64,000 nt of DNA from an uncultured Bdellovibrionales bacterium (GTDB lineage: Bacteria > Bdellovibrionota_C > UBA2361 > J135), in assembly GCA_964523015.1 (NCBI GenBank), contig CAZFXN010000001.1, forward strand, positions 8,976 to 72,975, written 5' to 3'. Below, piece after piece: positions 1,706 through 17,068 of this stretch. The notes beneath the pieces were generated by a model. It was not told where the DNA came from. It saw only the letters and a program-made list of their open reading frames with translations, and ran no database searches. The first letter of the stretch is position 1. The number at the start of each line of letters is the position of its first letter. Made by a program: the position numbers and the translations under genes.

Positions 1706-3820
1706 ATGGCAACCGGCTCTACTGCGACACTAGTCTCAGCAACCATGCAATTAAGTGGAGAATTCAGCCAAGCCCATATCTTGGATGCGGTGGTTAATTC
1801 TCCAATCGGCAATCTTGCGATCTTTATCTATATAATTTCAGCTATCGGATTTTTTATCAGCGTTGCCTTTTTTCAAAATTATAAAATGGGTATCTGGCTA
1901 GTATTTGGCCCTGCTCTCTGGGATATCTCGGCAAATACAAGAGCAGAACAGGTAAATTTAAATTGGATGTATGCTGGGACGGTAGTACAAGATCAGGATT
2001 GGTTAACTCAATTTAGTAACCAAAGTCTTACTGATGACCTCTCTCTTGATAAGGGTCCTGCAACATTATACGTACTATGGGACTCTGTTGTTAGCGGAAC
2101 TGTACAGAATCTAACCGGTTTACTAGCTAAGATTACAAACGATCCTGCAACCAGGCTTTTTGCCAAAACTAATATTCAGGAGGGAATGCTTGGATCTATG
2201 ATCCAGAGTCCTGAGATAAGAGAGGCTGTACGGATCGCTATGGGCCCAGATTGTACTCCAATGGTCCCTGTTAGTAAGGGAAATGAACCAAAAGAGTGGA
2301 ATTTTTTAGAGATTGATGAACTAGAAACAGCACTTGATAACAGATTAGTTAAGGGAGTTCCAGAATCTGTTGTTCGAAAGTTATGTGAATACTCGATGGT
2401 CTATGAGATCTGGCAGTATGGTTCAAATTTAGAATTTGATCAGATCGATACAGAGCCGTGTGTTGTCAATCCATGGGGAGCTATAGGAACCTTTTCCCTT
2501 GGAAACTCAGAGAAATCAAGTTGTCTAGAATTTTCACGAACTACTTGGCAGGCACTTCAGGTAAGCGCTGAATTAAGATTACGAAATCTATATAAATCGT
2601 CAGGAGCAAACTCTTCAGGTGTTAGCGCACTCGGCAGAGATATCTTACCACAGTGGTCACTTGATATGTTGGCACAAGATGACTCTTCGTTAAAAAAACT
2701 TGTGGCTAGCTACATGCTCAAAAATGAGATGGATGATCTTAATTTTTTAAATCCTTCTCGCTCACTATCTGATGGGGGGAAAACTGAATCAGAGCTGAAT
2801 AAACCAGTGGAAGCAATTGTAGGTTGGCTTGAGAGAGAATCAGCTCAGAGCCAAGCTGTATTTTTTGCAAAATCAGTTCCCTACTTACAAGGGGCACTTC
2901 TTTATACCTTAGCAATTGTATACCCCTTTATCTGCATTATTATGCTGATACCTGGATTTCATACTGCAATGATCACCTGGATGGGTGCTTGGGCTTGGGT
3001 TAAGAGCTGGGATATTATGCTTTACGTCATAAGTCTCCTCTCCGGCATTATGTCAGAAAACATTCTGCATAAAGGGATGCTTCATAATAATATCGTGCAG
3101 AATGAATACGTGGGTACTGATGGAAGTGTCTCAAGCTTTGCAGATAATGTAGTCAGCAGATTGGAGGATATTAATTTTCTACATCTCGCAGTTTATAAAG
3201 CATTTGATGACGTGGATCCAAAGTTCGTTGAAGGTATTATTAACTATATCGTTGCGCTTTCGACAATCTCGATCCCTGCTATTACTGGTATATTCTTTTT
3301 ATGGGGCAGAGCATCCTCTCTCAGCTTATTCACTGATGGCATGAAAAATAAAGCAATGGATGCAACGTCAAGAAGAGCTGCTCAACTTCAAGATCAGTGG
3401 TTAAGAGATATCGAGATCGGACGACAACAAGAAGTTCGAACATCAAGTGCTGTAGGTGCTGCTTGGGGATCAGGTATCGGATTTGCACTAGGAAACTTGC
3501 CTGGCGCAATGGTTGGTACTGCTCTTGGTGCTGTTGCTGGGGAGAAATTTGGTTCTGTTAGTGCCGGATATGACCGTGGGCCAGAAGCAGCTCTATACGG
3601 AGGACGTCCGATGGTTGTCTCCTCTGGTGACTTACTAGATCCGTGGGAGAGCATGACTACTGCAGCAGGAGCCATGGTAATCCAGAAACATTTACTTGAT
3701 GCAACCGGTCAAGCTGAGGCTGATCCAGTATCAACCTATATAAATGGCCCAGATAGGTTAAGGCTAAATCAGAACCTACTCGGAAATAGAAGAAACTTTA
3801 TCTGGGGCGGATCAAGATAG
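1706..3820 (+). CDS. traG: TraG-like polytopic membrane protein (VirB6-like N-domain) of F-type T4SS
   Basis: 704 aa with multiple hydrophobic helices in the first ~550 aa and a Gly-rich C-terminal segment (GAAWGSGIGFALGNLPGAMVGTALGAVAG). It follows the traH-like gene with a 19-nt gap. Confidence 0.45.
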   Translation: MATGSTATLVSATMQLSGEFSQAHILDAVVNSPIGNLAIFIYIISAIGFFISVAFFQNYKMGIWLVFGPALWDISANTRAEQVNLNWMYAGTVVQDQDWLTQFSNQSLTDDLSLDKGPATLYVLWDSVVSGTVQNLTGLLAKITNDPATRLFAKTNIQEGMLGSMIQSPEIREAVRIAMGPDCTPMVPVSKGNEPKEWNFLEIDELETALDNRLVKGVPESVVRKLCEYSMVYEIWQYGSNLEFDQIDTEPCVVNPWGAIGTFSLGNSEKSSCLEFSRTTWQALQVSAELRLRNLYKSSGANSSGVSALGRDILPQWSLDMLAQDDSSLKKLVASYMLKNEMDDLNFLNPSRSLSDGGKTESELNKPVEAIVGWLERESAQSQAVFFAKSVPYLQGALLYTLAIVYPFICIIMLIPGFHTAMITWMGAWAWVKSWDIMLYVISLLSGIMSENILHKGMLHNNIVQNEYVGTDGSVSSFADNVVSRLEDINFLHLAVYKAFDDVDPKFVEGIINYIVALSTISIPAITGIFFLWGRASSLSLFTDGMKNKAMDATSRRAAQLQDQWLRDIEIGRQQEVRTSSAVGAAWGSGIGFALGNLPGAMVGTALGAVAGEKFGSVSAGYDRGPEAALYGGRPMVVSSGDLLDPWESMTTAAGAMVIQKHLLDATGQAEADPVSTYINGPDRLRLNQNLLGNRRNFIWGGSR

Positions 3821-3929
3821 AGTTGCAGTAATCTAACATGCTGATTTTAGGTAATATTTTAAAAACATTGAATGATCAGGGGATCAAACTCACTAATAGT
3901 ACTGATATGGTAAAGAGAAGTGTCAATTT

Positions 3930-4352
3930 GTGCCTATTATTAGATCTATTACATTAATAGAACGAGAGAGGAATGGTATGAGATATCTTTATTGCTTAAT
4001 CGCCCTAGTGTCGTTTTTGTCTATATCTTCTGCAAGTTACGCTGATGCGGATTTTGAAAATAGAACCCCCAAAGCCTCTGCAAAATTAGAAGGCGCCAGT
4101 GGTGAAACACTAGCTTCTGCGGTTGGACATTATGCTAGGTCCCGTTCCTTACTTATTGAAGCTATTAGAGAATTTGATAGGGCCAATAAAATTGCAAGGC
4201 CAGACTCCATATTAGATAGCGAAGAGTGGAGAAGCTCACTTATCTCAAGAGCTGAGGATCTTGAACGGATCCTTTCCCCGCAGCCTAGGGTTACCAAGGG
4301 CGGAGTAAAATTTGAAGCTGATACTAGGCTCTTAAATGTCACCAATAAGTAA
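3930..4352 (+). CDS. secreted hypothetical protein (T4SS locus)
   Basis: ORF with an internal Met at ~3978 giving signal peptide MRYLYCLIALVSFLSISSASYA and a charged soluble domain. It sits between the traG-like and traL-like genes. Confidence 0.4.
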   Translation: MPIIRSITLIERERNGMRYLYCLIALVSFLSISSASYADADFENRTPKASAKLEGASGETLASAVGHYARSRSLLIEAIREFDRANKIARPDSILDSEEWRSSLISRAEDLERILSPQPRVTKGGVKFEADTRLLNVTNK

Positions 4353-4433
4353 AGATCATACATAACTATTTGGAGTCACTCTGAAGTTTTACGAAATTAC
4401 AGGGATGAAATTGAAAGATTAAGTTGAGGGAAG

Positions 4434-4859
4434 ATGGATAACGGAGAGGTAATTGGAGCATTAAATGAAGACTGGAACTTTGCTGGTGCAAATCTGCCTG
4501 AGTGGATGTCTGGCTTTGTTGTTTTTCTCATTGCTTCAGAGATGTTCGACAAGATTAGTCGATCGATGCCGATCCTGCTGATGATGTGGATAGGCACAAC
4601 TTTTCTTTTAGCTGCTGCAAGAAAATCATTTCCTGATGAAGAGCGTGGCTTAAGAAATGCAGTCATGGTTGCACTTGGATTTATTCCAATTGGACTTCCA
4701 GCTCCATCTAAATTTTGTCCGATGTGGAGTGGCGCTCCAGTTAAAGAGTTAGGAGAGGATAGTCATTACCAAACTTTAAGATTAGATGAAGCAATTTTAC
4801 GGATTGATGACGGGGAAGAGCCAAACCCTACATACACTCCAAGAGTAGTGAGACAATAA
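4434..4859 (+). CDS. traL: TraL-like small inner-membrane T4SS protein
   Basis: 141 aa with two hydrophobic helices (FVVFLIASEMF; MMWIGTTFLLAAA). It sits immediately upstream of the traE-like gene, as in the F-type traL-traE-traK-traB order. Confidence 0.35.
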   Translation: MDNGEVIGALNEDWNFAGANLPEWMSGFVVFLIASEMFDKISRSMPILLMMWIGTTFLLAAARKSFPDEERGLRNAVMVALGFIPIGLPAPSKFCPMWSGAPVKELGEDSHYQTLRLDEAILRIDDGEEPNPTYTPRVVRQ

Positions 4860-4880
4860 ACAAGGTTATTATAGGTAAAT

Positions 4881-5525
4881 ATGGGAAAGGTTGCGGAGAT
4901 ATTAAGAGCTAGTGAACTGAGAGCCCCGCTCAGTGATAATGACACCATTCGATTATGGGAGAGTCATCAGGAGCAAGCCACACTCTGGCGCTCATTAACT
5001 TTAATTCAAGTTCCAATTACTTTAATCTCTTTAGTACTAGCTCTGGTTTTATGGAGCACAAGAAGCGTAACGCTGAATGTTCCAGCTAAACCATTGCCTG
5101 GAATTTATGCTGCTCAAGATATTCCCGATAGTGAATTTATTGATTTTTCAACTGACTACATTAATTTAATTGCAACATATCAACCAGCAGTTGCTCGTAG
5201 ACAGTTTGAAGAGGCTAGACGAATGCTTTGGAGCCAGATGATTCAGGCTTTTGATTCCGACATGATGGGAACAGAGCTAAGAGCGATCGAAAACACGAAG
5301 CGTACTCAGATCTATTTTGTTGATCCAACAAAAGTAGGAATTAAACGGGAAGGACGAAACGTAACCGTATCTCTTCTTGGTGATCGTTATAAAATTATTG
5401 CTGGCAAAGAGATGCCTGCAGTTAAAACTGAATTTGTAATTACAATGAATACAATTCCAAAGAATAAGTTTAATCCTTATGGAATTGTTGTGACCAATGT
5501 AGCTCTTAAAAATGTGGAGAAATAG
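4881..5525 (+). CDS. traE: TraE-like (VirB8-type) bitopic T4SS protein
   Basis: 214 aa with a single N-terminal TM helix (LIQVPITLISLVLALVLW) and a ~150 aa periplasmic domain. Position is between the traL-like and traK-like genes. Confidence 0.5.
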   Translation: MGKVAEILRASELRAPLSDNDTIRLWESHQEQATLWRSLTLIQVPITLISLVLALVLWSTRSVTLNVPAKPLPGIYAAQDIPDSEFIDFSTDYINLIATYQPAVARRQFEEARRMLWSQMIQAFDSDMMGTELRAIENTKRTQIYFVDPTKVGIKREGRNVTVSLLGDRYKIIAGKEMPAVKTEFVITMNTIPKNKFNPYGIVVTNVALKNVEK

Positions 5526-6342
5526 GATTTTACAAAAGGCAAGCTGTATGGAAACAAAAGTAAAATTGAAAAGTATTGCTCTCATATTCTTACTAGTTGG
5601 TATTGCGACTACCGCTCTAGCTAGGGATGTTGAGTATAACGAGGGCGATGGGGAAATCTCTATCTGGGTAACACCAGGAGAACCAACAAGAGTAGCATTT
5701 CCCGCTATGATTGCTGGTGGATATAAGCGCAAAGATTCAAGTCTTGTCCTTGATAAAAAGGATCATGATCTCATTTTATTTGGCAACCAAACTATCTCTC
5801 CAAATGGAGAAGCTTTTATTGTTCGACTTGAAGATGGACGCTCTTACTCAATTCGAGCTAAAAGAGCGAGTGCTGATAAACCTCGTGATGATGCGGTAAG
5901 TATTACTGACAGTCGTGGCTCAATAATTCTTTCAAAAGAGGAGGAAGAACCAACTTATAGAGAGAAAAGATTTGAGTATGCCCCGCCTAGTCAGATAAGT
6001 GGCTTAATGCGTGAAATGGTTCTGACATCTGAGTTTGGTAAATCAACGATAGCTGGATATCGAAAAAGTGAAAAGTATAGAGGACAAGTTGTACTTAGTG
6101 ACGGCACAATGTTGGCTACTATTGACACTATCTTTATTGGGCCAAATCTTTGGGGATATGTTTTAGATACAAAGAACTTATTAAATACAACACAGAAAAT
6201 TAATCCAGCATCCTTCAGACTTGATGGCACAAGAGCTGTTTCAGCAAGCAATTGGGAATTAACTCCTAAGCCATTTAATATTGAACAGCAGATTGCTGGA
6301 AAAGATTCAACAAAAATTTATATCGTAACTAAGGCACGCTAG
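5512..6342 (+). CDS. traK: TraK-like (VirB9-type) secreted T4SS protein
   Basis: 276 aa with a signal peptide (LKSIALIFLLVGIATTALARD) and a beta-rich domain. It overlaps the traE-like stop and precedes the traB-like gene. Confidence 0.5.
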   Translation: MWRNRILQKASCMETKVKLKSIALIFLLVGIATTALARDVEYNEGDGEISIWVTPGEPTRVAFPAMIAGGYKRKDSSLVLDKKDHDLILFGNQTISPNGEAFIVRLEDGRSYSIRAKRASADKPRDDAVSITDSRGSIILSKEEEEPTYREKRFEYAPPSQISGLMREMVLTSEFGKSTIAGYRKSEKYRGQVVLSDGTMLATIDTIFIGPNLWGYVLDTKNLLNTTQKINPASFRLDGTRAVSASNWELTPKPFNIEQQIAGKDSTKIYIVTKAR

Positions 6343-6352
6343 AAAAGTAAGG

Positions 6353-7528
6353 TTGCATATGAAACAAAAGATTAAAGATTACTTACTACTGCTACAAAAT
6401 GATCGGAAGACCCAGATCTTAACGGGCATTGTACTGGTTATGTTAGTGGCATTTGTGTTTAATTCTCCACCAACAAGGGCCCCACAAAAAGGACCTAAAG
6501 TAACTCAACTTGGAACTGGCGGAACAGGGACTAAAGAAGCTTATGAGGATCTTTTAAATGCGTTCTCTCGAGATCTACAAGTTACCCAGGATCAACTAAA
6601 AAAAGTACAGCAAGAACTAAAGGATAAAGACAAATCCTTCTCTGATTACGACGCTAAAACAGCAGCTATCTTTACTAAAATTCTTGAAAGAATGAATTCT
6701 GGTGAGATGGGAAGTTCTGGCGGGGTTAGTGGGGCTTATGCTCCAATTGATATAGACGGTAGTTCTAGTGCAATTGGAGCTTCTGGATCATTAGCACCTG
6801 GCTCACAGGAACTTGAGCCGTTTGGATTAGATCAATCAGATCCATTACCTCCTCCACCTCCTCCAAGAAACAGATCAGCTTTCGTAGCAGTTGGTGACTC
6901 AGTAAGAATTAAACTTCTTGCGGGCGTGAATGCTCCAACAGACGGAACTCCTTATCCTGTAGTTTTTAAACTAGATGATGACGTGCTTGGTCCTGATGGA
7001 TCTCGCTTGCCATTAGGAGAAGCAAGACTTATTGCCGCAGCCCAAGGATCGCTTAGTGATTCTAGAGCACTCTTTAGACTTACCGATCTTAGCATTAGAC
7101 TTCCTGATGGCCAAAGACGGACTTATAAAGTTGATGGATGGGTTGTCGGAGAAGATGGCATTCGTGGCATGAGGGGAAGGTTAATCGATTATCTTGGCAA
7201 GGCTCTTGGGGCAGCTGGTGCAATTGGTGCAGCAGAAGGGGCAGCAAATGCTCTTCAGGCTGCAAAAACAACTTCTGTTATCTCAGATGATGGAGGTCTC
7301 TCTAATATCGCCACTGGAGGTACTGCTGAATTTATTACTGCAGGTGCTCTATCCGGAGGATTAGGAGCATGGGGAGATATTATCAAGGATCGAATCGATC
7401 AGTTAGTACCACATGTAGAAGTATTGTCTGGCAGAGGAGCAACAGCAATATTTGCAAAATCTGTAGTTATTGATGGTCTATTTGAAGCTCTTGAGGACGA
7501 TAGCACTGCCTTTGGTTCATTAGATTAG
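6353..7528 (+). CDS. traB: TraB/VirB10-like T4SS envelope-spanning protein
   Basis: 391 aa with an N-terminal TM helix (ILTGIVLVMLVAFVF), a Pro-rich linker (DPLPPPPPPRNR) and a C-terminal beta domain (VRIKLLAGVNAPTDGTPYPVVFKL...DGWVVGEDGIRGMRG) typical of VirB10/TraB. The track start is TTG at 6353; ATG at 6359 has a better RBS. Confidence 0.55.
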   Translation: MHMKQKIKDYLLLLQNDRKTQILTGIVLVMLVAFVFNSPPTRAPQKGPKVTQLGTGGTGTKEAYEDLLNAFSRDLQVTQDQLKKVQQELKDKDKSFSDYDAKTAAIFTKILERMNSGEMGSSGGVSGAYAPIDIDGSSSAIGASGSLAPGSQELEPFGLDQSDPLPPPPPPRNRSAFVAVGDSVRIKLLAGVNAPTDGTPYPVVFKLDDDVLGPDGSRLPLGEARLIAAAQGSLSDSRALFRLTDLSIRLPDGQRRTYKVDGWVVGEDGIRGMRGRLIDYLGKALGAAGAIGAAEGAANALQAAKTTSVISDDGGLSNIATGGTAEFITAGALSGGLGAWGDIIKDRIDQLVPHVEVLSGRGATAIFAKSVVIDGLFEALEDDSTAFGSLD

Positions 7529-7545
7529 TTTTTTGTGGAGTTGTT

Positions 7546-8010
7546 ATGAAAAGTAATAAGAGTGGGCTTTTAAAAATTGTGATGGTTGCTACAGCATTAT
7601 TCATCTCAGGGTGTACAGCTATTGGAGATAGATTAAATCCATTTCAAGAGGAGCCAGATCCAATTGCTTTCTTGGGAGATCGAGATGATCACGCTCTAAA
7701 CGGAACAAAAGCGAAAGAAGAGACCGCCAGAACTGCCCTTGAACAGATGGCTAGCTATAGAAGGACGAACTTCCCAGAACCGGTACATCCAGTTATACAA
7801 CCAGCCGTTGTAAGACTTATGTGGATACCGGATCACTTAAACAAAAGCGGGGATCTAGTTCCAGACCACTACTATTATTTAAAAGTTCTTAGCGATCGCT
7901 GGGCAGTACAGGATGCCTTTGAGCTCGAGTCACAACTTGGTCCAAACAAGGATCCAACAAATTTACCTTACGTATATAGCGATGATCGAAAAACTATAAG
8001 AGGACGGTAA
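7546..8010 (+). CDS. traV: TraV-like outer-membrane lipoprotein
   Basis: Lipobox LFISGC. C-terminal VRLMWIPDHLNKSGDLVPDHYYYLKV resembles the TraV signature (RvWvaPw.D..GdLh...yvY). Confidence 0.55.
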   Translation: MKSNKSGLLKIVMVATALFISGCTAIGDRLNPFQEEPDPIAFLGDRDDHALNGTKAKEETARTALEQMASYRRTNFPEPVHPVIQPAVVRLMWIPDHLNKSGDLVPDHYYYLKVLSDRWAVQDAFELESQLGPNKDPTNLPYVYSDDRKTIRGR

Positions 8011-8026
8011 TATTTATTAAGTTTAG

Positions 8027-8596
8027 TTGAATATGATTACTGAGAACAGAAAAACATATATAGCAGCAATAAAGGTAGTCGTACTCTTGGGATGCATTGT
8101 CTTTCTCGTTAGCTGCTCAAGCCAAAAACCTCCTGTTGCGAAAACACCACCTTTATATGACACGGCAAAAAGACAGTTAGCTCCTGAGCCGGTTTATAAT
8201 AGACTGCGCTGGGTCCATTTACCTGAAGTTATTCCTTACAAGGACAATAACAAGGACAAGAAAAAAATCTCTAAGAGCCAAGACTCACTAGAAGACAGGC
8301 CAATGATTTTTCCAATTATGAATTTTGATCTCAAAGATGGAACATTAGCTGAAGCTGCCCAGATGATTGGGGCTAGTGCCAGTTATCGTAGCTACTGCGA
8401 TCCATCAATCGCAGACAAACGACTATCTTTAAATATGCTTGGCACAATTCATGAGTTAGCCAATAGTATTTCAAGGTTAGTTGATGTTGAGATTATAATT
8501 GATCATTCTGCTAGGGAAGTTAGGTTTATGCCCCTAGGCGTAGAGAATAAATTAAGGTTTTTTGATAATACGGTAAGTGAATATGAGCATAGATAG
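8027..8596 (+). CDS. T4SS-associated lipoprotein with secretin-N/TcpQ-like C-terminal domain
   Basis: Lipobox LVSCSS. The C-terminal segment LAEAAQMIGASASYRSYCDPSIADKRLSLNMLGTIHELANSISRLVDVEIIID has an STN/N0-like pattern. It overlaps the traC start by 20 nt. Confidence 0.4.
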   Translation: MNMITENRKTYIAAIKVVVLLGCIVFLVSCSSQKPPVAKTPPLYDTAKRQLAPEPVYNRLRWVHLPEVIPYKDNNKDKKKISKSQDSLEDRPMIFPIMNFDLKDGTLAEAAQMIGASASYRSYCDPSIADKRLSLNMLGTIHELANSISRLVDVEIIIDHSAREVRFMPLGVENKLRFFDNTVSEYEHR

Positions 8597-11351
8597 GTTA
8601 ACACGGGCTCGACTTTATAAAGATGAAGCTCTGTTTAATAAACTACTCCCTTTTGCCAGATATGATATCGAGCAAGGTGTGTTTGTACACGCCGATGCTT
8701 CATTATGGTTGATGTACGAGTTGGAGCCTCTCCTTATAACTGCCACCTCTGATGCCTCTGCTTATCAAACATGCTCTAGTATTCAAGAGCTCTTAGATTC
8801 ATTAGATGTTAGTATTAGTGTCCAGTTTAATTGGGTGGTAACGTTCGACATTGAAGGTCTACTTCAAAAGGCACTCGAGCAGTACCCAGTATCCGGCGTT
8901 GCTGGTTGGATGGCTCGTCGCTGGAACAGAATGATGAAAAAGGCAGCTCGTAGCTCTTTTATTCATCAACGACCTAGAAAAATGCGACTTATCCTTTCTT
9001 TTAGACATGATCCACCATGGAGCAAGGGAAATATATTTCAAGAGCTTAAGAGAGCTTTTTCTATCCTGATTAAAGGTAATGTTGGATTCTCTGCAGATCA
9101 AAGACGAGCAGAGTATCTAAACTACGCCAACAAATTTAAAGGAGAGATTGAGGGTAAAGTATCTCGACTAAGAGACCTTGGTTTCTATCCAAAAAAAGTT
9201 GATGGGCAAGCTTTAATTGATACACTCTATCCGATACTGAATCGACGAAGCGTTAAAGGTGGTAAGTTTAAAAAAGGGCGCACCTCCTCAATCCCTGTGC
9301 CAGTTTTTGATCCGCTTGATTTATTATCAAATCAACTCTCTGAAACTGCTGTTGAGCATCCGCAAAATGGTATTATCAAAAAAGATGGTAGAGTTTTTAG
9401 AACTGTCTCGATGGTAAAATCTCCTAATCAAGCTTTTCCTCTGATGATTGCTCCGCTTCAATCGGCGCCATATGAAAATATTATAAGTGTTACTTATTCA
9501 AAAGATCCGATGCAAGCTCAGATCAAAAAACTTGATACGCTTGATAGCACCCTTGGTCTTCGTGAATTTACTAGCATGGGTAGAGGTAATCAAAAGATTC
9601 AACATCAGATTAGATCTATTAGGGCCGCAAGAGAGAGCTTATATAATAACTCCACTCAAATTGTCCGATTAGGTATCCATCAAACATTTATCTGTCAAAA
9701 TGAACAGGAAGCTATCAGAGCAACCTCTGAGGCAATGGCAGCTTTTCCTCAATTAAATGGTGCTCGTGGCATGGTTCACGAAATTGCTGACCTTGGTGTA
9801 ATGATCAATTCATTACCGGGATGCTATGAGCCAGCACTTGATGGACGTGGATGGACATCTGTATTGCAATCTTCACGCGCAGTTAGAATGCTTCCTTTAT
9901 GGGGCAATTGGAAGGGCAGTAAAGGCTCACTCTTTCTCCTACCAAATCTTTGGAACCGTGAATTAGTAGGATTCGATCTATTCGACTCTAATATTGCACC
10001 TAACGTATTAATAAGCGGAGTATCTGGTGCTGGTAAGAGTTATCTCCTTAACTTTCTTCTGATAACTCTTAATAGAGGGCACTATTCAACTCTCGCAAAT
10101 GGAATGACTGTTGAACGTCCACCAATTACCTTCGTCTTTGACAAAGGAATGCCTAATCAACCGTGTGGATTTGAAAAGATTGCTCATCTATTTGGTGGAA
10201 GAATATACGAAGCTACCCCTTCTAAAGCACCAGCCATGAACTTCTTGGCTCGCTTAGGAGACTGCCCTCACGATAACACCAACGAAGATTTCAAAGATCT
10301 AGTGGATATCTGCTCTGACATAGTTGCAGATATGGCTTCTGAAAATAATCGTCCGTTATCACGACTTCAGGTAGGTGATATTATCACTGCTCTTTTAGAA
10401 GCCCATAGAATCTATAGAGCTGGTCCAATGAAGAGGCAGTTTATTTTAAGTGATGTTGTCGCAGTTCTCCGTGCTCCAAAGAGAGTCGATGAGGATGAGG
10501 CTACAGCTATGCGTCGTGTCGAGATCGCTCTTTTAATGTCTGAGTACTATGGAGAGGGTACATATGCTAGATTCTTTGATAGACCAGGAGCATTAAGACT
10601 AAAAGAAAGATTTATCGTGTTCGATCTTAAGGGATTAAGTAGAAATCCTGACCTACAAAGGGTATTTTTAAAGATCGCTATGCTCTGGGCTGACGAGGTC
10701 ATGAACGATCCAAAAGAGCTCGACTCGAGAAAGGTTCTTGTGTTCGACGAAGCTCATGATCTTATCGGTAAAACATCTTCAGGTGTTATCGAATCAGCTT
10801 TCAGACTTTATCGTAAGAGAAAAGGTATTGTTATTGCCGCTTCTCAATCTGGTGAAGATTTCTATGTTGGTGCTGGTGGACAGGCTATCGTACAAAACAG
10901 CGCGCATAAGATCTTTTTGAGACAAGATCCAAGTAAGTTTCATTTAACAGCAAAAGCGTTCAATCTAAATGAACAACAGAGTGATGTAATTATGCGTTTA
11001 CGTACTATTAAAGGTGTTGAATCTCAATTTTATCTTCTCTCAGATATCGGAGAAGCCGCCCTTGTTCTACCTCTTGAGCCGGCGTACTACTGGGTTAGTA
11101 CAAATAATGGTGACGACAATCAATTATTTCAATCAGTACTTCAGGAATGTAATGGTGATTTTGCAGCAGCACTTGAGAGAGTAAGTATTATAGCTCCAAG
11201 TGGCGCAAGTGCGTTTGCACAGTACAGAGCTGCTATGCAGCAGGCTCAAGAGCAATCTCGAAATGGCGAAAATTCCGTTTCAAAAACAATTAATACCGCT
11301 TTAGGTCAAAATACAGGTTCAAATTCTATTATAAAGGAGCAGCAAATATGA
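8577..11351 (+). CDS. traC: TraC/VirB4-family T4SS ATPase
   Basis: 924 aa with Walker A GVSGAGKSYLLNFLL and Walker B VLVFDEAHDL. The length fits F-type TraC. Confidence 0.85.
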   Translation: MNMSIDRLTRARLYKDEALFNKLLPFARYDIEQGVFVHADASLWLMYELEPLLITATSDASAYQTCSSIQELLDSLDVSISVQFNWVVTFDIEGLLQKALEQYPVSGVAGWMARRWNRMMKKAARSSFIHQRPRKMRLILSFRHDPPWSKGNIFQELKRAFSILIKGNVGFSADQRRAEYLNYANKFKGEIEGKVSRLRDLGFYPKKVDGQALIDTLYPILNRRSVKGGKFKKGRTSSIPVPVFDPLDLLSNQLSETAVEHPQNGIIKKDGRVFRTVSMVKSPNQAFPLMIAPLQSAPYENIISVTYSKDPMQAQIKKLDTLDSTLGLREFTSMGRGNQKIQHQIRSIRAARESLYNNSTQIVRLGIHQTFICQNEQEAIRATSEAMAAFPQLNGARGMVHEIADLGVMINSLPGCYEPALDGRGWTSVLQSSRAVRMLPLWGNWKGSKGSLFLLPNLWNRELVGFDLFDSNIAPNVLISGVSGAGKSYLLNFLLITLNRGHYSTLANGMTVERPPITFVFDKGMPNQPCGFEKIAHLFGGRIYEATPSKAPAMNFLARLGDCPHDNTNEDFKDLVDICSDIVADMASENNRPLSRLQVGDIITALLEAHRIYRAGPMKRQFILSDVVAVLRAPKRVDEDEATAMRRVEIALLMSEYYGEGTYARFFDRPGALRLKERFIVFDLKGLSRNPDLQRVFLKIAMLWADEVMNDPKELDSRKVLVFDEAHDLIGKTSSGVIESAFRLYRKRKGIVIAASQSGEDFYVGAGGQAIVQNSAHKIFLRQDPSKFHLTAKAFNLNEQQSDVIMRLRTIKGVESQFYLLSDIGEAALVLPLEPAYYWVSTNNGDDNQLFQSVLQECNGDFAAALERVSIIAPSGASAFAQYRAAMQQAQEQSRNGENSVSKTINTALGQNTGSNSIIKEQQI

Positions 11352-11656
11352 AATCTTTAATTTTAACTCGAATCTTTCAATCTTTTTGTGTAGTGTTGAT
11401 AGGAATACTGACTGGTTGTGCAGCAGTTAATCCATTTGTACATACAAAAACTGTTTACCGTGAAGTTCCTATTAGTGGACCAAAGGCTGATGTTCCTCCT
11501 GGAGTAGTTGAATATGTTTGGGAAGAGCCTATGGTCGATGTTGTTGACGTGCCGCCAGGATTAGATCCTGAAGGAAGATATTATAGACCTGGTCATCAAG
11601 CTGTAGTTGAAGTTCGCCAAGGTAGATGGAGACATTACAAACTGGAGAATAACTAA
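11348..11656 (+). CDS. small lipoprotein
   Basis: Lipobox ILTGCAAV. ATGA overlap with the traC stop. Confidence 0.4.
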   Translation: MKSLILTRIFQSFCVVLIGILTGCAAVNPFVHTKTVYREVPISGPKADVPPGVVEYVWEEPMVDVVDVPPGLDPEGRYYRPGHQAVVEVRQGRWRHYKLENN

Positions 11657-12059
11657 GTATAGGAGGTTTATTATGGGAGTTCTCTCAGCACGATCTTTTG
11701 TTGCACCGATACTAGATAAGAAAAATCTAATTGCCATCGTTCTTATTGCTGTATTCTTTGCTGTCTATAGGCTTTCAGGGGGCTCTATTGAAACTGGTTC
11801 AAATCAAAGTCGCTCAAACTTAAAAGTAGCACCAGTAAGTGATTCATTTTTCGATCAGATGACTGAATCAGAGTCAATCTCTCCAATTTCAGATCTTAAA
11901 AAGATTCAAGGGAATGAATCCGCTAGGCCAACCAAAAGGAAAGCTGCCTCAAGTGATCTACTAGATGATATTTTGGTTGATAGGAAACCTAAGGAGGAAG
12001 CCCCTACTGGATCAAACTCCCAGCTTGATGATATCGAAAGGAGTCTTGGATTACGTTAA
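11607..12059 (+). CDS. hypothetical bitopic membrane protein
   Basis: Likely true start is ATG at ~11673, preceded by the strong RBS TAGGAGG. N-terminal TM helix LIAIVLIAVFFAVY. Confidence 0.4.
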   Translation: MKFAKVDGDITNWRITKYRRFIMGVLSARSFVAPILDKKNLIAIVLIAVFFAVYRLSGGSIETGSNQSRSNLKVAPVSDSFFDQMTESESISPISDLKKIQGNESARPTKRKAASSDLLDDILVDRKPKEEAPTGSNSQLDDIERSLGLR

Positions 12060-12073
12060 TTTAAAATTGTTAT

Positions 12074-12604
12074 ATGATAGAGGGACAGATTACATTCAAT
12101 CGAAGTTGGCGCTCTCAATGGCAACGCATGATCGTTTTCTTTGTTCTCTCTGGAATAAGTATTTTTTTGTCCTCATATTTTCCTGAAAGCATCATAAGAG
12201 GTCGCTTATTTACCATCGCTGGCGAAGCATTTTTTTTGAACCTTCCTCTATTTAGTTTTTTACCTTTGTACGGATTAGTTAATTTAATGTTGCCGATATA
12301 CGATGCTAGATTTACGATTGATAATCGTGGTCTTGAATCTCGGATAGGAATATTGTCTCTTAATCAACGAATTGTAAAGGTTCGGTATGAAGACATTCGC
12401 AGCCTTGAGCTCAATCAAACTTTACTAGATCGCGGTATTAACGTCGGTGCTATCTCAATTGGCAGTGCTGCAACAAGTACCATTGAAATTGTCTTTGACG
12501 GACTAGTTGAGCCCGTCGAGATTAAAAATCTTATACAACTAGAAAGAGATTCAAGGTTACGTAAAGCGTCATCTGATGAGAAAAAGATTCAGGCAGCGCT
12601 ATAG
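12074..12604 (+). CDS. membrane protein with bacterial PH (bPH_2/YdbT-like) domain
   Basis: Two N-terminal TM helices followed by a domain matching the bPH_2 pattern (RFTIDNRGLESRIGILSLNQRIVKVRYEDIRSLELNQTLLDRG...IEIVFDG). Confidence 0.5.
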   Translation: MIEGQITFNRSWRSQWQRMIVFFVLSGISIFLSSYFPESIIRGRLFTIAGEAFFLNLPLFSFLPLYGLVNLMLPIYDARFTIDNRGLESRIGILSLNQRIVKVRYEDIRSLELNQTLLDRGINVGAISIGSAATSTIEIVFDGLVEPVEIKNLIQLERDSRLRKASSDEKKIQAAL

Positions 12605-12621
12605 TTTTTTGGAGGTATTTT

Positions 12622-13689
12622 ATGAGGTTTGTTTTTAAATCTGCCATAATGGCAAACTATCTGTCAGTAGTCCTGTTAGCGATCCTGATAAGTACATTAA
12701 TTATTTCCAATTCTGCTAAGGCTGATAAGGTCGTAGAAAATCTTAAAGATAAAATCTCAACTCTTAAAGCTAGCGTAGAGGGATCTGATACGAGCGATCG
12801 TGATTTTAGTGCCGAACAGGAAGAGTTCGACCGCATGAGAGAGCAACTCCTTGCTGCAGAAAATGAAATTATAAAAGGGGAAACCAAGAAATCATTAAAT
12901 CAAGCGACTGTATCTGCTGATTATGAATATAAAAAGGAATATCAAAAGGAAGCAAAACTACCTAAAAACGATGATAGCTTTACGGAAGATCTTGATGATT
13001 CCTTAGAGAAGGATGCTAGAGCTGAGATGGCTAAAAAAGCAATCGACAGTACCTTTCAAGAGAATGAAGAATTAAAAGCAAAGTATCAAACTGCACTTAC
13101 CCAACTAGCTGCTAGAAACAAAGAATTGACAGCTCTAAGATCAGAGAAAACTTCTGTTACATCTGAGTCAAAAGTATCTAGAGATAAAATTGCATCCTTA
13201 CAAAAAGAGCTTCAAGGAGCAAAAAATAAACTCCTGGTTAGTGAAGCAGAGGTGGAAAGATTATCCGCACTAGCTGGATCCGGAGCTAAACATGCTAGAC
13301 TCCCTGCTCCTGCTACTGGACGCTCTTCAGTTTACTCAACTGCTAATAGTAACGTACAGACAACTTCCATTAAGCCTGAAACTTCTGATCTAACTGTTTT
13401 AACAGTGGTTGCTAGCAAAGCATACCTACGAACTGGTCCTGGAAAAGATAATTCTCCACTAATGGAGGTACGAAGCGGTACTAAACTAGCTGTAGAAGAC
13501 AGACAGGGAAATTGGTTTAGAGTGACAACGCCTACTGGCACACGTGCCTGGATCGCTTCCGAAGTAGTTGCATTTGGACCGAGCAGTACTGCTCGTCCAT
13601 CCCAAACTGTAAAAATTAAAGCTTCAAGTGAAAAAAATGATCAGATCGAAGAAAAAGCGTTTGAGCTTATTAATAAGCATTCTCGCTAG
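12622..13689 (+). CDS. secreted coiled-coil protein with C-terminal SH3b domain
   Basis: Signal/TM at the N-terminus, a long heptad-rich region (EEFDRMREQLLAAENEI...LQKELQGAKNKLLVSEAEVERL) and a C-terminal SH3_3-like segment AYLRTGPGKDNSPLMEVRSGTKLAVEDRQGNWFRVTTPTGTRAWIASEVV. Confidence 0.5.
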   Translation: MRFVFKSAIMANYLSVVLLAILISTLIISNSAKADKVVENLKDKISTLKASVEGSDTSDRDFSAEQEEFDRMREQLLAAENEIIKGETKKSLNQATVSADYEYKKEYQKEAKLPKNDDSFTEDLDDSLEKDARAEMAKKAIDSTFQENEELKAKYQTALTQLAARNKELTALRSEKTSVTSESKVSRDKIASLQKELQGAKNKLLVSEAEVERLSALAGSGAKHARLPAPATGRSSVYSTANSNVQTTSIKPETSDLTVLTVVASKAYLRTGPGKDNSPLMEVRSGTKLAVEDRQGNWFRVTTPTGTRAWIASEVVAFGPSSTARPSQTVKIKASSEKNDQIEEKAFELINKHSR

Positions 13690-14173
13690 TCTTTTACTAT
13701 TAACGATTGGGTTTCCTAATTTGCCAATCATTGCAGCCCCTAAATTTCCTGGGGATGCATTGAGTACATTTGTTTTTCCACTTTTTGCACCAAGAAAATC
13801 TAGCCCCTTTGGCGAGCGTAAGCATCCGATACTTCGTAAGGTCCGCCACCATGCTGGAATAGATCTAGCTGCCCCTAAGGGAACCCCTATACGTTCGATT
13901 ATGAGTGGTACTGTAGTGTTTGCTGATGACTATGAGGGGTATGGCAAACTAATTACTATTCGACATAATGATGAGCTTACAAGCCACTATGGGCACTGTG
14001 ATAAGATTAAAGTTGAAGTTGGTAAAAGAATAAAAGCAGGTCAGATTATTGGGACAGTAGGTGAAACAGGGCTTGCTTCTGGACCGCACCTTCATTTTGA
14101 AATACGGATAAAAGGAAAGGCTTACAATCCTGAACTCCTTATCCCAGAGTTAAATTCTGAGGCTAAGGGATAA
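13628..14173 (+). CDS. M23 family (LytM-type) peptidoglycan endopeptidase
   Basis: Signal peptide, HAGIDLAAPKGTPIRS (HxxxD metal site) and GYGKLITIRHNDELTSHYGHCD...GPHLHFEIR (HxH motif). It overlaps the upstream gene by ~55-62 nt (GTG 13628 or ATG 13637). Confidence 0.8.
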   Translation: MKKMIRSKKKRLSLLISILASLLLLTIGFPNLPIIAAPKFPGDALSTFVFPLFAPRKSSPFGERKHPILRKVRHHAGIDLAAPKGTPIRSIMSGTVVFADDYEGYGKLITIRHNDELTSHYGHCDKIKVEVGKRIKAGQIIGTVGETGLASGPHLHFEIRIKGKAYNPELLIPELNSEAKG

Positions 14174-14458: not shown

Positions 14459-14902
14459 GTGAAAAAACTAATTGGAGTTACTATGAATGAAGTTAATTCT
14501 CTTTTACAAAAAGTAAAGGGAAGCTTTCTATCTACTGGTCAATATATTGGGGCTGTATTTTATGCACCTACAAGAGGCCAGAGTCAGATTGCTCTTTTCT
14601 TACTTGGAGTTATTATCCTATCAGGCGGTCTTACAATCCATGCAATTGCTCAAGGTGATGTGGGATCAGACCTCGTAGGTGAATACAATGACGAGCGTGT
14701 TTCTGAGGCCGTTAATAGAATCTTCGCTTATATCGAAGGTTCCTTTGGAGCCTTAATCATGGTTGCTGCTGGTTTAGGAGCAATTATGGCGGCTGCGTTC
14801 GGACAATATAGAGCTGCTTTAGGATTACTTGTTGTAGCGGTTGGATCATTTATCCTTCGCTCTCTTGTTGGAACATTCTTTAACACAGAGACAATTCAAT
14901 AA
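14459..14902 (+). CDS. T4SS pilin-like protein, paralog 1 (TrbC/VirB2/TraA-type architecture)
   Basis: Long leader with a TM helix ending AIAQ, then a ~85-aa region with two hydrophobic helices rich in small residues (GSFGALIMVAAGLGAIMAAAFG...GLLVVAVGSFILRSLVGTFFNTETIQ). Likely true start is ATG at 14483. Confidence 0.5.
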   Translation: MKKLIGVTMNEVNSLLQKVKGSFLSTGQYIGAVFYAPTRGQSQIALFLLGVIILSGGLTIHAIAQGDVGSDLVGEYNDERVSEAVNRIFAYIEGSFGALIMVAAGLGAIMAAAFGQYRAALGLLVVAVGSFILRSLVGTFFNTETIQ

Positions 14903-14940
14903 CGACAATCCAGTAATCAAAAGAGCTTGATAAGAGCTCT

Positions 14941-14970
14941 AAAAGGGACCTTTAGGGGTCCCTTTTATTT
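14941..14970 (+). terminator. rho-independent terminator after pilin paralog 1
   Basis: aaaaGGGACCtttagGGGTCCCtttta: 6-10 bp GC stem followed by a T-run. A second hairpin agagct..agctct lies at 14921..14939. Confidence 0.7.
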
Positions 14971-15115: not shown

Positions 15116-15943
15116 ATGGCATTCTATAAAAAATTCCCTTTTGTTGTTGCAGTGCCTTTTCTTTATATCTCTCCTATGATTGCCAAGGCTGAGACTGGGC
15201 CATTGGGATTTGGTTCTCCTCAGTTTAGCGAAGATATGGAAACTGACCGTCCTGATTTTTCTGAGGGCACTAAAACTGTTGAAGCTGGACACCTACAGAT
15301 AGAAGCGGGGTATACCTTTACTGATAATAATGACGGTGGAGTGATAACTGAATCACACGCAGTTCCAGGGGTACTGGTCCGTATTGGATTAGCTCCAAAA
15401 TATGAACTCAGAATAGGTTGGCAAGGATTTATAGATTCGGAAACAACATCATCAGGTGACAATGCTCAGTCAGATGGTGTTGGCGATATGTCAATTGGCA
15501 CAAAGTTTAGACTTCAAGAAAACGATGCAGGATGGGATGTAAGTAGTATAATAGAAACCTCCTTACCTGTTGGAGATGATGAGGTTGCATCCGATAAACA
15601 TGAGCCTGCTGTTAAATTACTATTTGCCAAGGACTTATCTAGTGACCTTTCATTTGCAACAAATTTGAATGCTACCTACGTTAGTGGCAGTACAGAAAGG
15701 TATTATGAGCTAGCGGCGTCGGCATCATTTGGCACTGACCTAACTGACACCATCGGGCTATTTTTAGAATACTATGGGCAATTTCCTCTTGAAAATGTCC
15801 CTGAAGAGAATCTTCACACTTTAAATGGTGGTCTAACCCTCGCGCTAGATGAAAACCTACAGCTAGATGCATTTGTTGGAACCGGTCTTAATGCTGAAGC
15901 AGATGATTTCTTTACCGGCTTTGGTGTGAGTTTCCGAATGTAA
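15116..15943 (+). CDS. outer-membrane beta-barrel protein (transporter-type OMP)
   Basis: Signal peptide ending AKAET. Alternating hydrophobic beta-strand pattern, aromatic-rich, C-terminal ...GFGVSFRM. It sits between pilin paralogs 1 and 2. Confidence 0.45.
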   Translation: MAFYKKFPFVVAVPFLYISPMIAKAETGPLGFGSPQFSEDMETDRPDFSEGTKTVEAGHLQIEAGYTFTDNNDGGVITESHAVPGVLVRIGLAPKYELRIGWQGFIDSETTSSGDNAQSDGVGDMSIGTKFRLQENDAGWDVSSIIETSLPVGDDEVASDKHEPAVKLLFAKDLSSDLSFATNLNATYVSGSTERYYELAASASFGTDLTDTIGLFLEYYGQFPLENVPEENLHTLNGGLTLALDENLQLDAFVGTGLNAEADDFFTGFGVSFRM

Positions 15944-16157: not shown

Positions 16158-16589
16158 ATGTCTGTCTATACGTCATTGATAACCAAAGTAAGTAACTCGA
16201 CACAAAATGTAAGCCAGTATTTAGGCCAGTATTTAAGCACGATGTTTAATGCTCCAACAAAGAAGCAAACTCAATTTATGCTCTTCTGCCTAGGAATAAC
16301 GCTAGTTGCTTCAGGCATTACCGTTGAATTGCTAGCTCAAGGCGATGTGGGATCTGACCTCGTTGGTGAATATAACGATGAGCGTGTAGGTGAAGCTGTT
16401 AATAGAATCTTTGCCTATATTGAGGGATCTTTTGGAGCTTTAATCATGGTAGCCGCTGGATTAGGAGCAATTATGGCAGCTGCCCTTGGTAGCTACTCAG
16501 CAGCTATTGGACTCTTAGTAGTGGCAGTTGGAGCTTTCGTACTTAGATCTCTAGTTGGAACATTCTTTAATACTGAAAGTATTCAGTAA
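16158..16589 (+). CDS. T4SS pilin-like protein, paralog 2
   Basis: The C-terminal 85 aa are near-identical to paralog 1 (GDVGSDLVGEYNDERVGEAVNRIFAYIEGSFGALIMVAAGLGAIMAAALG...LRSLVGTFFNTESIQ), but the N-terminal leader is unrelated. RBS GGAGA upstream. Confidence 0.5.
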   Translation: MSVYTSLITKVSNSTQNVSQYLGQYLSTMFNAPTKKQTQFMLFCLGITLVASGITVELLAQGDVGSDLVGEYNDERVGEAVNRIFAYIEGSFGALIMVAAGLGAIMAAALGSYSAAIGLLVVAVGAFVLRSLVGTFFNTESIQ

Positions 16590-16717: not shown

Positions 16718-17068
16718 ATGAACCGCCAGCACATACAAAGCCTACTCATTCTAGTTGCCTATGCTCTTATCTTAAGCATCTCTGTGACTGCTTACTCTAA
16801 TATTAATTTTATTGACCTCTCTGATTTTCCAGGCAATGCCCCTGGTTACTATAACGATTTACGGATCGGAGAAGTTGTGAACCGGATCCTTAACTACCTA
16901 GAAGGAAGCCTTGGTGCGTTGATTATGGTTAGTGCCGGATTGCTTGCAATCCTTAGTGCCGCTTTTGGAAACTATAGAGCTTCTATAGCACTCCTTGTGG
17001 TTGCGATCGGGCCATTCATTCTCCGGTCATTTGTTGGTAGCTTTTTTAATGATGAAAATATTCGGTAG
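16718..17068 (+). CDS. T4SS pilin-like protein, paralog 3 (divergent)
   Basis: 116 aa. Signal peptide, then the same two-helix core with ~50% identity (VVNRILNYLEGSLGALIMVSAGLLAILSAAFGNYRASIALLVVAIGPFILRSFVGSFFNDENIR). Confidence 0.5.
   Translation: MNRQHIQSLLILVAYALILSISVTAYSNINFIDLSDFPGNAPGYYNDLRIGEVVNRILNYLEGSLGALIMVSAGLLAILSAAFGNYRASIALLVVAIGPFILRSFVGSFFNDENIR

Follow-up and report, generated by a model that had tools for sequence, protein, structure and literature searches.

A bPH, coiled-coil/SH3b, and M23 gene trio as a candidate cell-wall module of an F-like type IV secretion system in uncultured Bdellovibrionota

Three envelope genes downstream of traC

The sequence studied is a 64,000-nt window of a contig from an uncultured member of the Bdellovibrionota (CAZFXN010000001.1), with positions numbered from its first letter; it begins inside the gene locus of a type IV secretion system (T4SS). 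Downstream of the gene for a TraC/VirB4-type ATPase (8577..11351, + strand), used here as the upstream anchor, are three genes in the same orientation: one for a membrane protein with a bacterial PH domain (bPH; 12074..12604), one for a protein with a long helical, presumably coiled-coil region and an SH3b domain (CC-SH3b; 12622..13689), and one for an M23 metallopeptidase (13628..14173), the last two overlapping at 13628..13689. An earlier reading from the sequence alone had proposed these three open reading frames (ORFs), with these domains; they lie where it placed them, on the + strand, and each domain scores above its Pfam gathering threshold. It had also put the trio directly downstream of traC. 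Downstream it is, though not directly: genes for a 102-aa lipoprotein with an LTGC lipobox (11348-11656, + strand) and for a 128-aa protein with a single transmembrane (TM) segment (11673-12059, + strand) lie between, as given by the ORF list.

The bPH protein (176 aa) has two N-terminal TM helices, at ~19-37 and ~57-75 by hydropathy, followed by the PH domain. The match to Pfam bPH_2 (PF03703; aa 78-153, E 1.5e-8, 35.2 bits vs. a gathering score of 22) places it in that family. Nearly all orthologs have two hydrophobic segments ahead of the domain, and several motifs are conserved: WRS at the N-terminus, P..x.G.L in the loop, LPL in the second TM helix, R.EDIR, and GTAA. The positive-inside rule and a gene fusion described below suggest that the PH domain is cytoplasmic. 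The function of the bPH_2 family (YdbS/YdbT-like) is almost wholly unestablished; one report ties it to bacteriocin transport.

The CC-SH3b gene, with a GGAGG Shine-Dalgarno sequence 7 nt upstream of its ATG, encodes 355 aa: a signal peptide (…SNSAKA/DK), ~190 aa of long helices, a disordered linker, the SH3b domain (SH3_3, aa 266-316, E 2.3e-11, 44.1 bits vs. a gathering score of 27), and a C-terminal helix. An AlphaFold2 model built on 52 homologs, with a mean pLDDT of 77 and values of ~95 in helix 126-224 and SH3b 258-318, resolves these into an N-terminal signal helix; helices at 35-53, 61-104, and 126-224, the last of them ~100 residues long; the linker; an SH3b barrel at 258-318; and the C-terminal helix. 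In a Foldseek search of the PDB, this model matched the SH3b domains of cell-wall hydrolases, namely YkfC-type NlpC/P60 peptidases, the phage endolysin Psm, and YrvJ, at a root-mean-square deviation of 1.2-1.5 Å; the results comprised SH3b/SH3 domains only, with no EnvC-like fold among them. Conservation of 80% or more is confined to the SH3b domain and an L..AETEVERLS motif (aa ~204-215) at the end of the long helix. The helical region otherwise varies in both sequence and length, so that the proteins range from 265 to ~410 aa, and the C-terminal helix is found in some lineages only. The protein falls outside TIGR04211 (SH3_and_anchor, YgiM-like), reaching 42.5 bits vs. a cutoff of 65 over the SH3 part only and having no C-terminal TM segment. 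Database searches yielded 81 homologs, and every one with a taxon name is from Bdellovibrionota, Oligoflexia, or a “Deltaproteobacteria” metagenome-assembled genome (MAG).

The third protein (181 aa from a GTG at 13628, or 178 aa from an ATG at 13637) consists of a signal peptide and a bare catalytic domain. Its N-terminus, like that of CC-SH3b, has a signal-like segment by hydropathy, and both resemble cleavable Sec signal peptides with AxA sites. It is a member of Peptidase_M23 (PF01551), matching at aa 74-168 over profile positions 2-96 of 96 (E 5.4e-36, 123.1 bits vs. a gathering score of 28.7), and alignment to structures 3slu/6muk and 5j1l shows the metal-ligand and catalytic residues in place: H83-x3-D87 (HHAGID), H122 (SHYGH), and H153-L-H155. 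The sequence-only reading had named an active-site alignment as a check and lost metal ligands as a result that would speak against it; no such loss was observed, HxxxD, the catalytic His of (S/T)HYGH, and HxH being intact in all 28 of the M23 orthologs examined. Every one of these is again a signal peptide plus a bare catalytic domain, with neither a regulatory nor a targeting domain, and there is a conserved C-terminal tail, P(G/E)L…A(E/K)G. The closest relatives of solved structure are the M23B enzymes of the Neisseria NMB0315/NGO1686 (Mpg) type (3slu, 6muk), Csd1/2, and ShyA. The best NCBIfam models are those for the DD-endopeptidases MepM, ShyA, and ShyC, but all scores are far below the equivalog cutoffs, and the protein is therefore not an ortholog of any of these enzymes. 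By family resemblance it is most likely a DD-endopeptidase acting on the peptidoglycan of its own cell.

The overlap between the CC-SH3b gene (stop at 13689) and the M23 gene, first estimated at ~55 nt, measures 62 nt from the GTG start or 53 nt from the ATG. It encodes the C-terminal helix of CC-SH3b in frame 1 and the M23 signal peptide in frame 2, and no obvious Shine-Dalgarno sequence for M23 was seen when the overlap was read directly. An overlap of 53-62 nt recurs in ~10 lineages; in the rest, the genes overlap by 1-4 nt or are separated by a gap of no more than 39 nt. What is conserved is the tight juxtaposition of the two genes, not the overlap itself. In one locus, L053, they stand ~1.2 kb apart (3137-4369). 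A programmed frameshift, by which SH3b and M23 would be joined in a single lysostaphin-like protein, was considered and rejected: all M23 orthologs have signal peptides of their own, and in many lineages the two genes do not overlap.

Linkage of the trio to the T4SS gene block

Neighbourhoods of CC-SH3b homologs were inspected over the whole identity range, and family-alignment scans were run on species-representative genomes (25 loci) and metagenome contigs (22 loci), the loci being scored by tblastn with the window proteins. Merging of loci at least 95% identical left 49 lineages, all of them MAGs or metagenome contigs of Bdellovibrionota/Oligoflexia; single loci are cited below by L-numbers. 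Co-conservation of the trio next to traC, another check named by the sequence-only reading, is borne out. Of the 34 lineages whose DNA reaches far enough upstream, 32 have CC-SH3b downstream of TraC; bPH was found in 38 of the 39 lineages that could be evaluated for it, M23 in 39 of 45.

The recurrent block reads: small ORF, TraL-position ORF, TraE, TraK, TraB, TraV, ORF, TraC, lipoprotein, small ORF, bPH, CC-SH3b, M23, pilin-like gene. Identities to the window within it are 63-86% for TraC, 44-60% for M23, 30-70% for bPH, and 27-48% for CC-SH3b. The flanking chromosomal genes, in contrast, differ widely among genomes; since the block is constant while its flanks are not, the trio travels with the tra genes and not with a chromosomal neighbourhood. 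Even the most divergent members of the family (L033 and L034) are T4SS-linked. Neighbor-joining trees of TraC, bPH, CC-SH3b, and M23, which are poorly resolved at depth and were used for coarse statements only, share local clades (among them window/L001/L004, L011/L013/L016, L021/L022/L033, and L005/L014), and the pairwise distances for bPH, CC-SH3b, and M23 correlate with those for TraC at Spearman values of 0.26-0.48. Taken as comparative evidence, gene order and shared clades strongly support the view that the trio belongs to the T4SS gene block and does not simply neighbour it.

The M23 gene is the least constant of the three. It is absent from six scattered lineages (the L001 group, L004, L032, L047, L051, and L054), each of which has a nearest relative that carries it; this points to several independent losses, in which bPH, CC-SH3b, and the T4SS block were kept.

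Some loci depart from the usual arrangement. In L021, a 596-aa polytopic membrane protein of the GT-C/ArnT-like type (7343-9133) is inserted between bPH and CC-SH3b; this and the insertions in the modules of L044 (see below) and L053 possibly serve to glycosylate the pilin or the wall. In L032 (9250-10884), bPH and CC-SH3b are a single 544-aa ORF, with two TM helices, bPH, a hydrophobic segment, helices, and SH3b in that order. The 1.3 kb downstream of it contains neither M23 nor the pilin-like gene, and no ORF there exceeds 90 aa. Such a fusion would be topologically coherent if the bPH domain were cytoplasmic and the remainder periplasmic, and it hints, weakly, at a physical coupling of the two proteins. 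No second example turned up: PF03703 was found in none of the 81 CC-SH3b homologs and SH3 in none of 14 bPH homologs, and the genes are unfused at the other loci.

The surrounding F-like locus

The genes upstream of traC (1706..8596) follow F-plasmid order and are syntenic across all related loci. All on the + strand, they are a TraG_N-like gene (1706-3820; Pfam TraG_N, below the gathering score); two small ORFs in F-like position between it and TraE; TraE (4881-5525; F-like position, with a Pfam match below the gathering score); a gene in the TraK position (5512-6342); TrbI/TraB (6353-7528; Pfam TrbI at E 1.3e-14, above the cutoff); a TraV-like lipoprotein gene (7546-8010; Pfam TraV below the gathering score); and, by gene order, a 189-aa ORF (8027-8596). 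TraC itself has the F-type N-terminal domain (TraC_F_IV, E 2.8e-13, 50.1 bits vs. a cutoff of 28.1) together with P-loop_TraG (E 2.9e-9). TraH, TraU, TraW, TraN, and TraF were not recognisable in Pfam scans of the window block or of the upstream half of L035, and neither a relaxase nor an integrase was recognised among the locus proteins. In relatives found via the first gene of the window, the locus extends by three more co-oriented genes, and in L035 (1-21392) and L036 by two divergently oriented genes upstream, one for a 665-aa protein of no known type and one for a coupling protein (TraG-D_C, 27.6 bits vs. a cutoff of 22).

The window TraC is 63-86% identical to those of related loci (~30 Bdellovibrionota lineages) and only ~23-24% identical to any plasmid TraC; a plasmid search found no close relative of this T4SS, identity being at most 24% and all plasmid matches being annotated traC. 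The locus is chromosomal, with its position beside HD/ribBA genes kept in one sub-clade. Judged by profile matches, gene order, and TraC divergence, the T4SS is a deep-branching, chromosomal F-like system of uncultured Bdellovibrionota. The locus flags an F-like T4SS fixed in the chromosomes of this group, which may serve conjugation or some other purpose.

The two genes between traC and the trio hold the same position in nearly all related loci, and neither product has a family match in Pfam or NCBIfam scans. The lipoprotein gene starts within traC, overlapping its stop by 4 nt; its product has a very strongly conserved C-terminal motif, WEEPMVDVVDVPPGLDPEGRYYRPGHQ, and reaches 83% identity across lineages. 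The gene call for the 128-aa protein is confirmed in L059, and the protein has a weak and non-significant NCBIfam similarity to IcmG/DotF (E 0.01, 15.6 bits vs. a cutoff of 200).

Around the trio, genes in the window are separated by intergenic gaps of 14-17 nt or overlap. The first terminator-like site on the + strand downstream of traC is a strong hairpin at 14940..14967 (a 12-bp stem followed by a T run, from a consensus scan). It is cited alone, as promoter and terminator scans of the window gave site counts not above shuffle expectation. It follows just after a gene for a small hydrophobic, pilin-like protein of 147 aa (14459..14902, + strand), which lies downstream of the trio in most lineages, after M23 or SH3b in many loci. 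Paralog alignment identified two further copies in the window (16158-16589 and 16718-17068), the three being 51-70% identical to one another, with a gene for an outer-membrane beta-barrel of the Phenol_MetA_deg family (15116-15943; E 8e-22) inserted between the first and second. There are two copies in the L001 group and one in other lineages. A leader and a C-terminal helical hairpin are predicted for the 147-aa protein, with an AlphaFold2 pLDDT of only 50, a model too poor for fold search; the paralogs have no Pfam or NCBIfam match, and the designation “pilin” is presumptive.

In the closest relatives of the window (L001, 11324-15124; L002, 6792-14123; and L004, 9405-16625), a complete chemosensory cluster (CheW, CheA, CheR, CheD, CheY, CheX, CheB, and a response regulator) comes directly after the pilin-like gene and before the HD/ribBA genes. 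The same HD/ribBA genes flank the locus in the window, where the chemosensory position is taken by the outer-membrane protein and the two extra pilin-like paralogs. Three short metagenome contigs, the JGI fragments L037 (Ga0163150_10138296) and L039 (Ga0163149_10076449) and the contig L059 (ERZ505514), are 100% identical to parts of the window, which suggests that this organism, or a very close relative, was present in the communities sampled. The CC-SH3b gene is called as two pieces in L060, which lies on the L037 contig, possibly owing to an assembly frameshift.

That no VirB1-like transglycosylase is visible in the locus, as the sequence-only reading had remarked, was confirmed by all searches made; because the window begins inside the locus, they took in the upstream half of the locus in a relative, L035. 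There was no Pfam match to an SLT/lytic-transglycosylase family at E<=0.1 in the 19 proteins of the window block, nor any at E<=1 in the eight proteins of the upstream half of L035, which contains the coupling protein. For the whole window, a six-frame motif scan found nothing, nor did tblastn with an L007 SLT protein. A cryptic enzyme of this kind was set aside as a candidate, with the reservation that highly divergent members might escape these searches.

Possible functions and comparison with known systems

The trio is probably a dedicated cell-wall module of the F-like T4SS. Its core would be a pair, bPH in the inner membrane with its PH domain in the cytoplasm, and CC-SH3b exported to the periplasm side, where the SH3b domain would bind peptidoglycan and the helical region, probably a homo-oligomeric coiled coil, would act as a spacer from membrane complex to sacculus. 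Together the two may anchor the machine in the wall or position it there. M23, presumably co-expressed from its overlapping or abutting gene, would be a small secreted DD-endopeptidase cutting peptide cross-links; having no targeting domain of its own, it might be confined to the assembly site by CC-SH3b in trans. Local cutting could then open the mesh for a periplasm-spanning T4SS or pilus in the stead of VirB1, M23 being, like VirB1, helpful yet dispensable. For this reading as a whole, a tether of bPH and CC-SH3b plus a cutter targeted in trans and replacing a transglycosylase, a probability somewhat above one half (~0.55) seems reasonable. Substrate specificity, peptidoglycan binding, contacts among the three proteins, co-transcription, and a role in T4SS assembly are all extrapolated from sequence.

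Several observations weigh against it. M23 appears to have been lost six times from a T4SS block that stays, and so is apparently not essential to the machine. The module is also found away from the T4SS. L006 (an 805-kb Oligoflexia contig) and the near-identical L027 have the full trio with no T4SS gene within 10 kb; it is flanked by an NYN-domain gene and tolB-pal-ybgF on one side and by lpxL, a Mur ligase gene, and ftsW on the other. In L044, an SH3b-M23 pair lies away from TraC, with neither bPH nor TraC in the 10 kb upstream, and is preceded by genes for an O-antigen-ligase-like 596-aa membrane protein (5420-7210), a 472-aa protein, and a PilB/GspE-like ATPase. Conservation of these copies equals that of the T4SS-linked ones (M23 is 56% identical to that of the window), and evidently the module can persist without an adjacent T4SS. 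The L032 fusion was seen once, in one MAG, and may be an assembly error. Because many of the T4SS proteins have diverged too far for Pfam, one of the unassigned ORFs could encode a cryptic transglycosylase. Finally, EppA, the M23 endopeptidase of the class III gonococcal islands (which carry an F-like T4SS), is encoded where atlA otherwise sits, but reportedly cannot replace the transglycosylase AtlA, and EppA islands are reported unable to secrete DNA. As to the copies away from the T4SS, the sequence-only reading had held that a trio conserved at unrelated positions in relatives lacking the T4SS would refute it; such neighbourhoods do occur, as judged within 10 kb, in two of the 34 lineages. 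L006 nests among T4SS-linked copies in all three trees, which suggests that relocation fits better than an ancestral T4SS-free state. The exceptions qualify the T4SS reading and do not overturn it.

The same copies argue that the trio is a housekeeping envelope module, with a general role in wall growth, division, or shape, and became fixed beside a vertically inherited chromosomal cluster while having no specific role in the T4SS. The setting of L006/L027 among tolB-pal-ybgF and lpxL/mur ligase/ftsW, the displaced pair of L044, the undiminished conservation of both, the elongation and shape endopeptidases that are the nearest characterised relatives of M23, and the fixation of the T4SS locus itself beside HD/ribBA in one sub-clade would all be expected. 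Against this, in 32 of 34 lineages the trio has traC on one side and the pilin-like gene on the other, within the tra block, despite differing flanks; the nesting of the L006 copy, poorly resolved as the trees are, suggests a secondary relocation; six losses of M23 with its partners kept would be unexpected for a housekeeping endopeptidase; and the CC-SH3b family is found in this clade only. On balance a purely housekeeping role is rather unlikely. Doubtful, though to be taken seriously, is a regulatory pair, in which CC-SH3b, possibly signalled via bPH, allosterically activates or inhibits M23 in the manner of EnvC/NlpD-type control, the purpose being controlled hydrolysis and not tethering. 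A bare periplasmic M23 enzyme would be dangerous if uncontrolled, and the orthologs lack the regulatory domains of ShyA, MepM, and Mpg; the two genes overlap or abut wherever M23 is present; each M23 gene in these loci has CC-SH3b immediately upstream; and the invariant AETEVERLS motif could be an interaction site. The sequence-only reading had likened the pair to an EnvC-LytM activator and hydrolase, an analogy that does not hold up: CC-SH3b has neither a LytM domain nor an EnvC-like fold match, M23 is catalytically intact, and the NCBIfam scores are low (EnvC 74 bits vs. a cutoff of 270, NlpD 87.9 vs. 311), with the EnvC match to the M23 protein only. No FtsE/FtsX family match was found among the scanned locus proteins. 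CC-SH3b with its AETEVERLS motif, and bPH, are moreover kept in the six lineages without M23, so their role cannot be solely M23 activation.

Two further possibilities look outward from the cell. M23 could be a weapon against the walls of prey or competitors, delivered through or alongside the T4SS, with CC-SH3b and bPH as chaperone, immunity, or delivery factors. The clade belongs to the Bdellovibrionota and is probably predatory, known bacteria-killing T4SSs include ones delivering wall hydrolases, the presence of M23 varies as it often does for accessory effectors, and the extended locus includes a coupling protein; but all M23 orthologs have a classical Sec signal peptide and, beyond the short conserved tail, no C-terminal secretion domain was seen in them, the enzyme is a single-copy ortholog at 44-60% identity with no effector-like diversification, and CC-SH3b, which is kept where M23 is missing, greatly exceeds typical immunity proteins in size. 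An offensive enzyme is thus very improbable. It is also quite improbable, if conceivable, that the machine is a contact or predation organelle and not a conjugation system, with bPH and CC-SH3b as an unrecognised class of T4SS stator reaching from inner membrane to peptidoglycan, and with M23 cutting the prey wall, or both walls, at the contact site; this idea draws on the chemosensory cluster adjoining the locus in some genomes, the one to three pilin-like paralogs, and the coupling protein.

The preferred reading, a wall module tied to T4SS assembly, can be set beside several better-known arrangements. The textbook route of Gram-negative T4SSs through the wall is a VirB1-type lytic transglycosylase. 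Such enzymes are thought to open the sacculus locally for T4SS assembly, and to be facilitating, not strictly essential (PMC12857230). Like VirB1, P19, Orf169, AtlA, and LtgX, the M23 protein would be a secreted periplasmic wall-degrading enzyme encoded within a T4SS cluster, and their dispensability matches its losses. Those enzymes, however, are transglycosylases that cut glycan strands and have no bPH or CC-SH3b partners, whereas here a member of a zinc endopeptidase family would act on peptide cross-links, and no SLT domain was detected in the locus. The locus suggests an alternative solution to the wall, conserved clade-wide: a peptide-cutting M23 enzyme with a separate SH3b stalk and a bPH partner. 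A T4SS-linked wall-remodelling role of the trio is plausible.

EppA, compared by literature description only, is a precedent in an F-like T4SS. It differs in that the M23 proteins described here have intact active sites and are kept in 39 of 45 lineages, in a system that is apparently maintained, and in that no bPH or CC-SH3b partners have been described for it. Were the module reading true, there would be a case for asking why endopeptidase and transglycosylase do or do not interchange, a question that EppA and AtlA raise in Neisseria. From the same genus, Mpg (NGO1686), an M23B DD-endo/carboxypeptidase, is needed for full type IV piliation, which shows that a pilus machine spanning the envelope can depend on an M23 enzyme to assemble normally or to be stable. 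Mpg, MepM, ShyA, and the Csd enzymes are multi-domain proteins (with LysM, OapA, or other N-terminal regulatory domains) encoded at housekeeping loci, unlike the bare domain found here inside a T4SS gene block. In PrgK of pCF10, a LytM domain occurs alongside SLT and CHAP.

Two other systems share parts with the trio. Enzymes of the lysostaphin/LytM/ALE-1 type combine an M23 catalytic domain and an SH3b targeting domain in one chain. The same two functional parts are present here, but as separate polypeptides in different frames, in a Gram-negative bacterium, and with a likely different substrate; the SH3b domain is of the SH3_3/SH3_4 type on a long helical stalk, where lysostaphin has SH3_5, so the trio is not a member of that group. 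If the interpretation is right, the trio would be a naturally “split” form of the lysostaphin design, in which catalysis and targeting fall to different proteins. EnvC has a coiled coil and a catalytically dead LytM domain in one protein, is controlled by FtsEX, and activates amidases. The likeness is that of a periplasmic coiled-coil protein tied to an inner-membrane partner and to wall hydrolysis, and the EnvC LytM domain and the M23 domain here are homologs (E 1e-16); the difference is that this coiled coil carries SH3b and not LytM, that the M23 residues are intact, and that neither FtsEX nor an amidase was found in the locus.

As a proposed tether, bPH and CC-SH3b may be compared with the peptidoglycan anchors of other trans-envelope machines: OmpA-like DotK/IcmN, TagL/TagN of the type VI secretion system, GspAB of the type II secretion system, TsaP/FimV of type IV pili, and MotB, which use OmpA-like, LysM, or PF01471 domains. 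The likeness, by analogy, would lie in a wall-binding subunit that is encoded with the machine and linked to the membrane. To our knowledge, no T4SS has been described in which an SH3b domain is carried by a coiled-coil stalk and has a bPH membrane protein as its partner. Should the pairing prove functional, it would give a concrete role to the membrane proteins of bPH_2, a large family about whose function almost nothing is known. For an M23 gene in an F-like T4SS island there is a precedent in eppA; new here are its two conserved partners, bPH and CC-SH3b.

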